DNA of 64,000 bases, from IMG/VR virus record IMGVR_UViG_3300029516_000004, positions 1 to 64,000 of that record; one strand, 5' to 3'. Under the pieces are notes generated by a model, which did not search any database, was not told where the DNA came from, and saw only the letters and a program-made list of their open reading frames with translations. Source of the stretch: a virus. Its lineage: Duplodnaviria > Heunggongvirae > Uroviricota > Caudoviricetes. Of this stretch, positions 39,163 through 46,498 are shown piece by piece (the stretch's first letter is position 1; the number at the start of each line of letters is the position of its first letter). The translations under genes were made by a program, and so were the position numbers.

Positions 39163-39170
39163 AAATACCT

Positions 39171-39193
39171 CGTGTACTCGTTATGTGTACACA
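39171..39193. promoter_or_regulatory. phd-doc operator/promoter palindromes
   Basis: gtgtac and tgtgtacaca palindromic units directly upstream of phd. Confidence 0.4.
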
Positions 39194-39338
39194 ATTATAA
39201 ACTTCACAGGCATAAAGCACCAGCACTTTGCGGCTTAACAAACCTCTAGGCAGGTCATTCGTAGCCTAATGTCCGAACTGCTAAAGCATCCAAGTTGCTG
39301 TAGAATCACCGCCAATTACATAAGCCTGAAATAAGTGG

Positions 39339-40901
39339 ATGAAAATGACAAGTATTCAACAACGTGCAGAGCTTCATCGTCAAATCTGGCAAATTGCTAA
39401 CGATGTCAGGGGTTCGGTCGATGGATGGGATTTTAAGCAATACGTTCTGGGCGCACTTTTCTACCGTTTTATCAGCGAAAATTTTTCCAGCTATATTGAA
39501 GCCGGGGATGACAGTATCTGTTATGCGAAACTGGATGACAGCGTAATTACTGATGACATTAAAGACGATGCTATCAAAACTAAAGGCTACTTCATCTACC
39601 CCAGTCAGCTTTTCTGCAACGTAGCGGCGAAAGCAAATACCAATGACAGACTGAATGCAGATTTAAACAGCATCTTCGTTGCTATCGAAAGTTCTGCTTA
39701 CGGTTATCCTTCAGAAGCTGACATCAAAGGTTTGTTTGCTGATTTCGATACCACCAGTAACCGCCTGGGTAACACCGTTAAAGATAAAAATGCCCGCCTG
39801 GCTGCGGTTCTGAAAGGGGTTGAAGGGTTAAAACTTGGTGACTTCAACGAACATCAGATTGACCTGTTCGGTGATGCCTATGAGTTCCTGATCTCTAACT
39901 ATGCGGCAAATGCCGGTAAGTCAGGCGGCGAGTTCTTTACACCGCAGCACGTCTCTAAGCTGATTGCACAACTGGCTATGCACGGGCAGACCCACGTTAA
40001 CAAAATCTACGACCCGGCAGCAGGCTCCGGTTCGCTGTTGTTGCAGGCTAAAAAACAGTTTGATGACCATATCATCGAAGAAGGTTTTTTTGGTCAGGAA
40101 ATCAACCATACGACCTATAACCTGGCGCGTATGAACATGTTTTTGCACAACATCAACTACGACAAGTTTGATATCAAGCTGGGCAATACGCTGACTGAAC
40201 CGCACTTCAGAGATGAAAAACCGTTTGATGCCATCGTTTCTAACCCGCCGTATTCGGTGAAATGGATTGGCAGCGATGACCCGACGCTGATTAACGATGA
40301 ACGTTTTGCCCCGGCTGGCGTTCTGGCCCCCAAATCCAAAGCTGACTTTGCGTTTGTATTACATGCGCTGAACTATCTTTCTGCCAAAGGTCGTGCTGCG
40401 ATTGTTTGCTTCCCGGGTATTTTTTACCGTGGCGGTGCGGAGCAGAAAATCCGTCAGTATCTGGTCGACAATAACTATGTCGAAACCGTGATTTCACTGG
40501 CACCGAATCTGTTCTTTGGCACCACCATTGCCGTCAATATTCTGGTGCTGTCTAAACATAAAACCGATACCAAAGTTCAGTTTATTGACGCCAGCGAACT
40601 ATTCAAAAAAGAGACCAACAACAATATCCTGACCGATGCCCATATCGAACAGATTATGCAGGTATTTGCCAGCAAGGAAGATGTTGCTCATCTGGCGAAA
40701 TCAGTCGCGTTTGAGACCGTTGTTGCTAATGACTATAACCTGTCGGTGAGCAGCTATGTTGAAGCGAAAGATACTCGCGAAATTATCGATATCGCTGAGT
40801 TGAATGCAGAGCTGAAAACCACGGTCAGCAAAATCGACCAGTTGCGTAAAGATATTGATGCAATTGTGGCTGAAATTGAAGGCTGCGAGGTGCAGAAATG
40901 A
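39339..40901 (+). CDS. hsdM: Type I restriction-modification methyltransferase HsdM
   Basis: 520 aa; AdoMet motif [11 protein letters not shown], catalytic SNPPYSVKW. Confidence 0.9.
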
Positions 40902-43307: not shown

Positions 43308-46300
43308 TTGCACCAAACCAATTGCTGAGTCCAATAATTTTATCATTTTGGACAAATACAACCCGGACTGGAAGATTACCGAGAGCTACCAGAGCGAAGG
43401 TGATCTGGAGCGTGAGCTGATTCAGGATTTGGTTAACCAGGGCTATGAATACCTGCCAACCCTGAACAACACCAAGGCTATGCTCGCTAATGTCAGGGAA
43501 CAGTTGCAAAACCTTAACAATGTAGAGTTCCTGGAGGCTGAATGGCGTCGCTTTGTGGAAACCTGGATGGACAAGCCCAGCGATGGCGTTGTTGAAAAGG
43601 CCCGCAAGATTCATGATGATTATGTTCATGATTTCGTCTTCGACGATGGCCGTATTCAGAATATCTATCTGCTGGATAGAAAAAACATCCTTCGCAATAA
43701 AGTGCAGGTCATCAAGCAGTTTGAACAAGCAGGCACGCACGCCAATCGCTACGATGTCACCATTCTGGTCAATGGCCTGCCGCTGGTACAAATTGAATTG
43801 AAAAAACGTGGTGTAGCGATTCGTGAGGCTTTCAACCAGATACATCGTTACAGTAAAGAGAGTTTTAACAGCGAAAATTCCCTGTTTAAGTATCTGCAGC
43901 TGTTCGTCATTTCCAACGGCACTGATACCCGTTATTTTGCCAACACCACAAAGCGCGATAAAAACAGTTTTGACTTCACCATGAACTGGGCTAAATCAGA
44001 CAATACACTGATTAAAGACCTCAAAGACTTTACCGCTACCTTTTTCCAGAAACATACTCTGCTTAATGTTCTGGTGAACTACAGCGTTTTTGACAGCAGT
44101 CAGACGCTACTGGTAATGCGACCGTACCAGATTGCCGCCACCGAGCGCATTCTGTGGAAAATTAAGAGTTCCTTTACAGCGAAGAACTGGTCAAAACCGG
44201 AAAGCGGTGGGTATATCTGGCACACTACCGGTTCTGGTAAAACCCTCACCAGCTTTAAAGCCGCGCGTCTGGCAACAGAACTGGACTTTATTGATAAAGT
44301 TTTCTTTGTGGTCGACAGGAAAGACCTCGATTACCAGACCATGAAGGAATATCAGCGTTTTTCGCCAGACAGCGTCAACGGCTCGGAAAATACCGCAGGC
44401 CTTAAACGAAATCTGGATAAGGACGATAACAAAATTATCGTCACTACTATTCAGAAACTCAATAACCTGATGAAAGCAGAAAGCGACCTGCCTGTATATA
44501 ATCAGCAAGTGGTGTTTATATTTGATGAATGCCACCGCAGCCAGTTTGGAGAAGCGCAGAAAAACCTGAAGAAGAAATTCAAACGCTATTATCAGTTTGG
44601 TTTTACCGGCACCCCTATTTTCCCGGAAAACGCCTTAGGCTCAGAAACAACCGCCAGCGTATTTGGTCGTGAATTGCATTCGTATGTAATTACCGATGCG
44701 ATTCGTGACGAAAAAGTGCTCAAATTCAAGGTGGACTACAACGATGTGCGGCCACAGTTTAAGTCTTTAGAGACAGAAACTGACGAGAAAAAACTGAGTG
44801 CGGCTGAAAATCAGCAGGCGTTTCTTCATCCCATGCGTATTCAGGAAATCACGCAATATATTCTGAATAATTTCCGCCAGAAAACCCACCGTACCTTCCC
44901 TGGCTCAAAAGGTTTTAATGCTATGTTGGCAGTGAGCAGCGTGGATGCCGCGAAAGCCTATTATGCGACGTTTAAACGGTTACAAGAAGAAGCCGCTAAT
45001 AAATCGGCTACCTATAAACCGCTGCGTATTGCGACAATCTTCTCCTTTGCCGCCAATGAAGAACAAAATGCCATTGGTGAAATTTCCGATGAAACTTTTG
45101 ATACCAGCGCAATGGACAGCAGTGCTAAAGAGTTTCTGGACGCTGCAATTCGTGAATATAACAGCCATTTTAAAACTAACTTTAGCACCGACAGTAACGG
45201 TTTTCAGAACTACTATCGTGATTTAGCCCAGCGGGTTAAAAATCAGGATATCGATCTGCTAATTGTCGTGGGGATGTTTTTAACCGGTTTCGATGCTCCA
45301 ACATTAAACACGCTATTCGTCGATAAAAACTTGCGTTTTCACGGCCTGATGCAGGCATTCTCCCGCACCAACCGCATTTATGACGCGACTAAAACCTTCG
45401 GTAATATTGTCACGTTCCGAGATCTGGAACGCTCAACCATTGATGCCATAACGCTGTTTGGTGACAAAAATACCAAAAATGTGGTTTTAGAAAAGAGTTA
45501 TGCAGAGTATATGGAAGGCTTTACTGATGCTGCCACTGGTGAAGCTAAGCGCGGCTTTATGGCAGTAGTTTCAGAACTGGAACAACGGTTCCCTGACCCT
45601 ACCAGTATTGAAAGTGAAAAAGAGAAGAAAGACTTCGTTAAACTGTTTGGTGAATACCTGCGTGCCGAGAACATCCTGCAAAACTATGATGAATTTGCCA
45701 CGCTGAAAGCCCTGCAACAAATCGATCTTAGCGATCCTGTTGCGGTAGAAAAATTCAAAGAAGAACATTATGTGGATGATGAAAAGTTCGCTGAATTGCA
45801 AACGATTCGTCTCCCTGCTGAACGCAAGATTCAGGATTATCGTTCTGCCTATAACGATATTCGTGACTGGCAGCGCCGCGAGAAAGAAGCTGATAAAAAA
45901 GAAAAATCAACCACTGACTGGGATGACGTGGTTTTTGAGGTCGATTTGCTGAAGTCTCAGGAAATAAACCTGGATTATATCCTTGGACTGATTTTCGAAC
46001 ACAACAGACAAAATAAAGGCAAGGGCGAAATGATCGAAGAGGTCAAACGCTTAATTCGTTCAAGCCTGGGGAACCGGGCGAAAGAGGGCCTGGTGGTCGA
46101 TTTTATTCAGCAAACGAACCTGGATGATTTACCAGACAAAGCCAGTATCATTGAGGCATTCTTTACGTTTGCTCAACGCGAACAGCAACGTGAAGCAGAA
46201 GCATTGATAAAAGAAGAAAATCTCAATGAAGATGCAGCAAAACGCTATATTCGCACGTCTTTAAAACGCGAATACGCCACCGAAAATGGCACAGAATTAA

Positions 46301-46419
46301 ACGAAACATTACCAAAACTTAGTCCGTTGAATCCGCAATATAAAACGAAAAAACAGGCAGTTTTCCAGAAAATCGTCTCGTTTATTGAGAAGTTTAAAGG
46401 CGTAGGCGGAAAAATATAG
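43300..46419 (+). CDS. hsdR: Type I restriction subunit HsdR
   Basis: 1048 aa; Walker [15 protein letters not shown] box FDECHRSQ, further SF2 motifs. Confidence 0.9.
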
Positions 46420-46498
46420 CCCAATTCGTGTTTTTCTTGCGGGTTCTTAATTAAACCCGCAAGAGCTCGTGGGGTTCCAAATGGCTAATATACTCCCC

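Follow-up and report, generated by a model that had tools for sequence, protein, structure and literature searches.

An EcoprrI-type hsdM-hsdS-prrC-hsdR cassette as probable cargo of a P1-like phage-plasmid

Can a P1-like phage-plasmid carry a type I restriction system with the anticodon nuclease PrrC embedded in it, and how might such a locus have been put together? The question is raised by a 64,000-nucleotide (nt) stretch of DNA from a virus of the Caudoviricetes (positions 1 to 64,000 of IMG/VR record IMGVR_UViG_3300029516_000004), hereafter called the window; all positions refer to the window unless P1 is named. The list of open reading frames (ORFs) gave four genes, hsdM-hsdS-prrC-hsdR, all on the + strand at 39339-46419. 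We are fairly confident that they form a defence cassette of the EcoprrI type, which a P1-like phage-plasmid carries at its pmgT-humD site as accessory cargo.

The third gene, prrC (42117-43307, +), codes for a predicted latent tRNA-Lys anticodon nuclease of 396 amino acids (aa), which matched the PADLOC model PDLC02360 PrrC with 490.8 bits (E 6e-148). EcoPrrC is likewise described as a protein of 396 aa, with the motifs AxxGxGKT47, LSKGE173, YVFIDD216, SSLD222 and KFIITTH251 and a peptide at residues 284-294; the residues defined by mutagenesis include R320, E324 and H356 (PMC1484252, PMC3025547). All six motif strings were found in the ORF, each ending at the published residue number, and 38 of the 38 literature-defined residues were present at the same numbering, without a mismatch. 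The nucleoside triphosphatase (NTPase) motifs are the Walker A motif up to T47, the C-loop LSKGE173, the Walker B motif YVFIDD216, the D-loop SSLD222 and the H-loop with H251. K46 and T47 (within GTGKT), D287, R320, E324 and H356 are all in place, as are the further essential residues H295, H297, K299, H315, N321, R349 and N352. The 11-residue lysine-anticodon recognition peptide, residues 284-294, which sets the specificity for tRNA-Lys (PMC3025547, PMC1484252), is identical. A preliminary description of this DNA, made without database searches, had pointed to a 396-aa PrrC with a P-loop and the R320/E324/H356 spacing; these features all fall at the published EcoPrrC numbering, and PrrC homology, on which that description depended, is confirmed by the PADLOC score, the six motifs and the 38 residues. 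As far as sequence tells, the third gene is a PrrC of the EcoPrrC type. Public data contain the identical protein on 88 contigs, and its NCBI name is "anticodon nuclease". A large protein search returned more than 8000 PrrC relatives, with no Swiss-Prot-labelled prototype among them.

The genes around prrC code for the three subunits of a restriction-modification (R-M) system. HsdM, the methyltransferase subunit (39339-40901, +; 520 aa), gave 650 bits with TIGR00497 and 1160 bits with the M protein of EcoR124II (PDB 7bst_D) over residues 1-520. HsdR, the restriction and translocase subunit (43300-46419, +; 1039 aa from the ATG at 43300), gave 2180 bits with EcoR124I HsdR (PDB 2w00, chain A) over residues 4-1039 and 742 bits with TIGR00348; it has the Pfam domains EcoR124_C, T1R_D3, SWI2_SNF2 and HSDR_N, and its PD-(D/E)xK core is conserved. 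Since HsdM and HsdR match EcoR124I/II over their full length, the system is assigned to type IC. The proposal of a type IC R-M locus with an embedded PrrC thus holds, prrC lying between hsdS and hsdR. HsdS, the specificity subunit (40898-42115, +; 405 aa, with PF01420 (Methylase_S) found twice), aligned with the EcoR124 S chain 7bst_A in the N-terminal, central and C-terminal conserved regions, whereas both target-recognition domains differ. Its central conserved region carries three TAEL repeats. Systems with three such repeats, EcoDXXI, EcoprrI and EcoR124II among them, have an N7 spacer (PMC3874165), and an N7 spacer is predicted here. The exact HsdS protein was absent from a collection of 15 billion protein sequences.

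How close is the locus to the prototype? EcoprrI (prrA-prrB-prrC-prrD of E. coli CT196) has the same M-S-PrrC-R order, type IC Hsd subunits and a PrrC of 396 aa with the same NTPase motifs, PrrC-box residues, recognition peptide and R320/E324/H356 numbering, as quoted in papers. The HsdS of the window is a different allele, and its two target-recognition domains have different relatives; the DNA target is therefore probably not the CCA N7 RTGC of EcoprrI. The two loci also differ in location. The prototype prr locus was reportedly mapped to the chromosome (Abdul-Jabbar and Snyder, in 1984), unlike the present one, which sits in a P1-like phage-plasmid.

The four genes are tightly coupled, as the preliminary description had it: hsdM and hsdS share 4 nt (ATGA), a single nucleotide lies between hsdS and prrC, and the end of prrC overlaps hsdR by 8 nt. 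The hsdR ORF opens at a GTG at 43273; the ATG at 43300 is the likely start and is used in all annotated relatives. For hsdM, PGAP-style annotations of near-identical records use an alternative start two codons later, at 39345. The cassette has a G+C content of 0.39-0.46, compared with 0.48-0.51 in its flanks. Upstream of hsdM it begins with a cassette-specific leader (39239-39338, +) that is present neither in P1 nor in chromosomal prr islands; the leader is 95-100% identical to that of prrC-less type IC cassettes of P1-like elements and ~35-40% identical to chromosomal prr loci. A cassette-specific trailer (46420-46494) lies between the end of hsdR and the right P1 junction. With prrC placed after hsdM and hsdS and overlapping hsdR, synthesis of PrrC would be tied to that of its maskers, which would matter when the phage-plasmid enters a naive cell.

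To place the cassette, we aligned the window by local megablast with P1 (NC_005856) and with the P1-like plasmid CP057689.1; the blocks were in reverse orientation. P1 blocks at 96-98% identity cover most of positions 2260-50977, and the remainder, to 64000, is collinear with CP057689.1. The block at 2260-10211 (P1 32222-24244) holds cin, lyd, hdf, darA, ddrA and ddrB; that at 11329-24108 (P1 22532-9754) holds ssb, lyz, pro, prt, darB, ulx and lxc. Shorter blocks at 25986-27016 (P1 3336-2306) and 30385-32405 (P1 2026-1) contain mat and ref, and cre and lox, respectively. Immediately before the cassette, 32406-39238 (P1 94800-87970) carries coi, c1, pacB, pacA, lpa, pdcB, pdcA, doc and phd, and beyond it 46495-50977 (P1 84482-80000) carries pap, pmgS, pmgR, pmgQ and ppp.

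Both junctions could be fixed precisely. On the left, the toxin gene doc (38561-38941, -; TIGR01550 DOC_P1, 133 bits), collinear with P1 doc, and the antitoxin gene phd (38941-39162, -; PF02604, TIGR01552) belong to the P1 backbone. They are followed by the P1-homologous phd promoter region (39163-39238; 97.4% identity to P1 87970-88045), within which the P1 RefSeq annotation has Pphd at P1 87986-88014. In the junction alignment this homology stops at the humD stop codon, the rest of humD being deleted. On the right, P1 sequence begins again at P1 84482, 5 nt upstream of the would-be pmgT start codon. The non-P1 insert, 39239-46494 (7,256 bp), thus stands in place of P1 84483-87969. A position next to phd-doc inside a P1-like phage had been claimed before and is borne out by phd and doc directly upstream and P1 DNA on both flanks; a locus outside the phage is rejected on the same ground. 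The further claim that the locus replaces humD/lxr-type genes was right in that both are gone and incomplete in its extent. Replacement of humD and lxr alone is rejected, as nine genes of the P1 annotation are replaced: pmgT, pmgU, pmgV, upfM, upfN, upfO, hot, lxr and humD.

The element also encodes Dar antirestriction proteins, as had been noticed. The virion-borne anti-restriction operon hdf-darA-ddrA-ddrB (4019-9913, +) is 97.4% collinear with P1, and its ORFs (203, 639, 121 and 995 aa, respectively) are intact and of P1 length; darB and ulx (16626-23867, +; 2255 and 146 aa), 98.1% collinear with P1, have P1 lengths too. By collinearity with CP057689.1, repA, parAB and repL would lie beyond the end of the window.

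Is a type IC locus at this site new? According to the P1 RefSeq annotation, P1 87969-88647 is 98% identical to the sequence upstream of the EcoDXXI hsd locus, and P1 84263-84482 matches the sequence downstream of the EcoDXXI and R124/3 hsdR genes. The ends of the EcoDXXI and R124/3 homologies annotated in P1 are the same two breakpoints as our cassette junctions. That type IC hsd loci have P1 flanks is said to go back to Tyndall et al. in 1997. EcoR124I/II, EcoDXXI and prrC-less P1-like cassettes (pPK8277-98kb, vB_EcoM-673R5) share the insertion site and the P1 junctions with the locus in the window; the prrC-less type IC cassettes differ in having a 121-bp spacer for prrC and an HsdR N-terminus of the R124 type.

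The prrC-bearing form is on record as well. Plasmid pRHB17-C14_2 (CP057689.1, 99.3 kb) is 99.3% identical over 100% of the region of interest and 97% identical over 30 kb of backbone. This plasmid is itself a phage-plasmid of the P1 type: it has darB, repL, parAB and c1 as well as portal, tail and lysis genes, and the PGAP products at its locus are M, S, "anticodon nuclease" and HsdR. The locus was also found in pRHB12-C02_3 (CP057875.1), NZ_CP116245.1 and NZ_CP061756.1. The annotated flanks of CP057875.1 and NZ_CP061756.1 show the phd-doc side of the same P1 site, and NZ_CP116245.1 was placed by the extent of the match alone. Three of these four prrC-bearing P1-like plasmids have other hsdS alleles (the alignment covers 94% of the query in two pieces), and there are differences in backbone cargo. 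In a 2025 phage-plasmid preprint (10.1101/2025.09.12.675607), PrrC appears among the defences listed for P1-like elements and for the SSU5 group, and a 2024 review (PMC11652158) agrees. The system is thus already known, in a known place, and is annotated in public records and included in recent surveys.

PrrC cassettes on P1-like phage-plasmids are rare. Of 5,426 complete E. coli genomes, 6 contained prrC DNA and 1,278 a type IC-like hsdR 5' region. Close copies in PLSDB were limited to the four E. coli plasmids named above and three Klebsiella plasmids. Among viral contigs in IMG/VR, 25 had PrrC relatives at 33-74% identity, none of them close.

Does this make the prr element a P1-like plasmid prophage, as the preliminary description had suggested? 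For some copies it does. In two of the six prrC-positive E. coli genomes the gene is on P1-like plasmids, and in one it is in a P1-like context, namely a P1-like element with the same prr cassette (430572-455762) inside NZ_CP097001.1, a record labelled chromosome; this reflects either the rare integration of a P1-like prophage or a join made during assembly. In the other three, prrC lies in a chromosomal island beside nanC/nanM, together with McrBC, DUF4942 and CP4-type genes. Homology of the island to the window is confined to 39342-46418, with neither P1 flanks nor the cassette-specific ends of 100 and 75 bp. The Klebsiella copies, in which PrrC is 91% identical, are on non-mobilizable plasmids of ~110-116 kb that have phage-type genes and are not P1-like. 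The suggestion therefore does not extend to the prr element in general. On the Klebsiella plasmids, a DUF262 gene (4932-6797 of the locus fetched from NZ_CP141781.1) precedes the M-S-PrrC-R operon.

How, then, did prrC come to lie in the cassette? We determined sliding identity along the locus and counted mismatches against fetched prr and prrC-less loci. A segment of ~1.7 kb (42057-43740, +), comprising the last ~20 codons of hsdS, prrC and codons 1-147 of hsdR, stood out and is called the prr module. Its sequence differs from that of every E. coli prr locus, P1-like or in a chromosomal island, by 1-3 mismatches over 1684 nt (one compared copy also has a 9-nt indel), and is thus 99.8-99.9% identical across E. 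coli type IC loci that are otherwise diverged. Outside the module, the same loci have 22-56 mismatches in 1553 nt of hsdM and 19-140 in 2679 nt of the rest of hsdR; the flanking hsd genes differ by 1-5% among them. The prrC-less pPK8277-98kb matches the window at 98-100% identity in hsdM, in target-recognition domain 1 of hsdS and in hsdR codons 148-1039; target-recognition domain 2 is, among the loci fetched, shared only with CP057689.1 and the P1-like element of NZ_CP097001.1. In prrC-less cassettes the 121-bp spacer separates hsdS and hsdR where prrC would be, and HsdR residues 1-147, of the R124 type, are 52-70% identical to the prr type; EcoR124I in the PDB is of the same kind. The PD-(D/E)xK core is the same in both types of HsdR. 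The simplest reading of this mosaic would be a recent spread of the ~1.7-kb module by homologous recombination into diverged type IC backgrounds. In the present element, recombination would have placed the module into a resident P1-type type IC cassette.

That the module includes the 5' end of hsdR raises the question of whether the HsdR N-terminus and PrrC belong together. Among E. coli records, a prr-type hsdR 5' end (at least 99% identity) occurred in exactly the 6 that are prrC-positive; in the other 1,363 records, which are type IC-like, the identity was 60-80%. Among plasmids it occurred, at 95.6-100%, in exactly the seven prrC-positive records. The HsdR proteins of Klebsiella are 96-100% identical over residues 1-100 and 85-96% identical from residue 261 on. 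The prr-type N-terminus also accompanies other genes in the slot between hsdS and hsdR (S-R slot). Aeromonas veronii plasmid NZ_CP121836.1 combines it with a RhuM-like ORF (3958-4836 of the locus; the label is a reading of the ORF sequence, not the result of a profile search). In a Methylophaga plasmid the hsdR 5' end is nearer to the prr type (74% nucleotide identity), and a RhuM/Fic/DOC-family gene fills the slot (3992-4981 of the locus). These RhuM/Fic-type slot genes weaken the idea that residues 1-147 of prr-type HsdR are a docking surface specific for PrrC. Because the prr-type N-terminus occurs with slot genes other than prrC, hitch-hiking with the S-R slot is the simpler reading, and a role of the HsdR N-terminus as a contact surface for PrrC has a low probability. 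The slot itself looks like a general docking place for passenger toxins. The RhuM/Fic-type passengers of this slot are not anticodon nucleases of the PrrC type; RloC, another related system, is described as rarely linked to R-M systems (PMC3458546). It is a rather doubtful proposition, taken as a whole, that prrC spreads among enterobacterial type IC loci as a module, with P1-like transducing phage-plasmids as the vehicle between cells, and that the divergent HsdR N-terminal subdomain, found with prrC throughout E. coli and Klebsiella, might be the surface by which PrrC is kept silent.

What would such a cassette do? The following steps are drawn from work on EcoprrI and PrrC by the Kaufmann and Shuman laboratories (PMC1484252, PMC3025547, PMC3874165, PMC12707154). 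In a lysogen, HsdM2S would methylate host and prophage DNA, and its complex with HsdR would cut unmodified incoming DNA, while PrrC would be kept silent through association with the Hsd complex. The Stp peptide of a T4-like phage, aimed at the type I enzyme, would free PrrC, a step that requires hydrolysis of guanosine triphosphate and binding of deoxythymidine triphosphate. Free PrrC would then cut tRNA-Lys 5' of the wobble base, and the infection would be aborted. A phage might escape through repair of the tRNA by polynucleotide kinase (T4 Pnk) and RNA ligase (Rnl1). The plasmid prophage would gain by protecting the clone that carries it.

The wider picture is that a temperate phage-plasmid can carry a two-layer host defence, DNA restriction and a tRNA-cutting fail-safe for when restriction is inhibited; that it packages Dar anti-restriction proteins as well, to its own benefit; and that the P1 genome has a fixed hotspot where defence modules are shuffled. 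Current understanding is left unchanged: how PrrC works, that type IC loci have P1 flanks and that PrrC occurs on P1-like phage-plasmids had all been recorded before. Natural P1-like plasmids that differ in the presence of prrC, yet are otherwise almost the same in hsdM and in hsdR codons 148 onward, offer ready isogenic-like pairs that would test what PrrC adds to type I restriction. The use of these pairs is modest, as is that of the module observation.

Several points weigh against the reading of the locus as a phage-borne EcoprrI-type defence. Restriction, methylation, latency of PrrC and Stp-triggered cleavage of tRNA-Lys are all attributed to it from its identity to the prototype, and the equation with the CT196 PrrC is based on residue numbers and motif strings as given in the literature. 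Virion formation by this particular element is only predicted, and the genes for plasmid replication and partition would fall outside the window. Scans of 38900-46800 found 11 promoter-like sites where 13.2 were expected and 9 terminator-like sites where 7.5 were expected, that is, no signal; since this simple scan gave nothing above chance, no cassette promoter is claimed. One alternative is that the embedded ORF is a PrrC-like ABC ATPase with another RNA target or no nuclease activity, the locus then being a type I R-M system with a passenger gene. Pfam gave a partial AAA_13 match only, NCBIfam had no model matching PrrC or HsdS, and a PDB sequence search with PrrC found no PrrC structure (best match E 0.02, to an unrelated defence protein). 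The PrrC homologues of Neisseria and Xanthomonas are non-toxic, and in yeast some PrrC homologues have no toxicity (PMC3025547). Set against the length of 396 aa, the PADLOC score, the identical recognition peptide and the agreement at every literature-defined residue, this alternative is very improbable.

The case for a decayed P1-derived plasmid, no longer phage-forming and with the cassette as plasmid cargo rather than phage-borne defence, is a better one, although we still think it unlikely. The nine replaced genes include pmgT, pmgU and pmgV, which are annotated as putative morphogenetic functions; a tblastn search found a PrrC homologue in 0 of 50,697 deposited phage genomes; and every P1-like record with prrC comes from a genome assembly, as a plasmid or as a chromosome. 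However, the same replacement, by a prrC-less type IC cassette at the same site, is found in the Punavirus records vB_EcoM-673R5 and phi456, which were deposited as phages, and therefore loss of pmgT-humD is probably no block to virions. The window, moreover, keeps its collinearity with P1: hdf, darA, ddrA, ddrB, darB, ulx and cre, which were checked one by one, are full length, and so are ORFs where portal and pro are expected (the placement of c1 and pacAB relies only on collinearity and on how related elements are annotated). R-M systems are able to act as addiction modules, and the cassette directly adjoins phd-doc, which is an addiction module. Its main role might thus be post-segregational stabilisation alongside phd-doc rather than defence against phages, loss of the R-M system leading to cutting of the chromosome or to release of PrrC, which is toxic when unmasked (PMC3025547). 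This we consider improbable. Type IC systems are easily lost and established through assembly-based restriction alleviation (PMC12707154) and are for this reason poor addiction modules; the position beside phd-doc is common to all type IC cassettes at the site, with or without prrC. A phage-borne, EcoprrI-type defence cassette thus remains our preferred reading.

The backbone gene next to the cassette, pap (46684-47190, -), equals P1 Pap and codes for a 3'-phosphatase of the HAD/PNKP type (PF25109 HAD_PNKP, E 3e-11). PGAP names the product '3'-phosphatase' and, in one record, '3'-phosphatase 5'-polynucleotide kinase phage-associated protein'. The 3'-phosphatase of T4 polynucleotide kinase takes part in the repair of PrrC-cut tRNA; since pap is a conserved P1 backbone gene, its place beside an anticodon nuclease is probably a coincidence. 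The window has three tRNA genes, Met-CAT, Thr-TGT and Asn-GTT (59968-60043 and 61475-61628, -), as in P1. With no tRNA-Lys among the three, the phage has no obvious replacement for the tRNA that its PrrC would cut.

At the right junction, the C1 operator OpmgT (16 of 17 positions matching P1) and the PpmgT promoter region are retained at ~46640-46685 (-). With pmgT gone, the C1-repressed PpmgT points antisense into the 3' end of hsdR and, on prophage induction, could send antisense transcripts into this gene. Downstream of PpmgT is a small unannotated ORF coding for a hydrophobic peptide of 28 aa, MNTAFKIIMAAIYFWLFSITFGGIVAHG (46499-46586, -). It ends just inside the P1 side of the junction, and its 3' end, which was compared, is also present in P1, upstream of pmgT.

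P1 itself carries another R-M system, the type III res/mod genes of EcoP1I, which is likewise phage-borne and protects P1 lysogens; it differs from the cassette in enzyme type and genome position, and res/mod are absent from the window. Their position (24108-25986) holds instead genes for an AraC-family helix-turn-helix protein (24151-24885, -) and an EAL-domain protein (25108-25797, +). PADLOC gave no match in the variable regions screened, the AraC and EAL genes included, and no second R-M system was seen in the window by this screen of variable regions. As unrelated cargo occupies the res/mod position, the sole R-M system observed in the window is the cassette. A further block of cargo not found in P1 (27016-30385) lies between ref and cre and contains genes for a metallo-beta-lactamase-fold protein (27290-28066), a DJ-1/PfpI-AraC regulator (28082-29071), a SnoaL-like protein (29068-29481) and a truncated resolvase (29863-30228, -).

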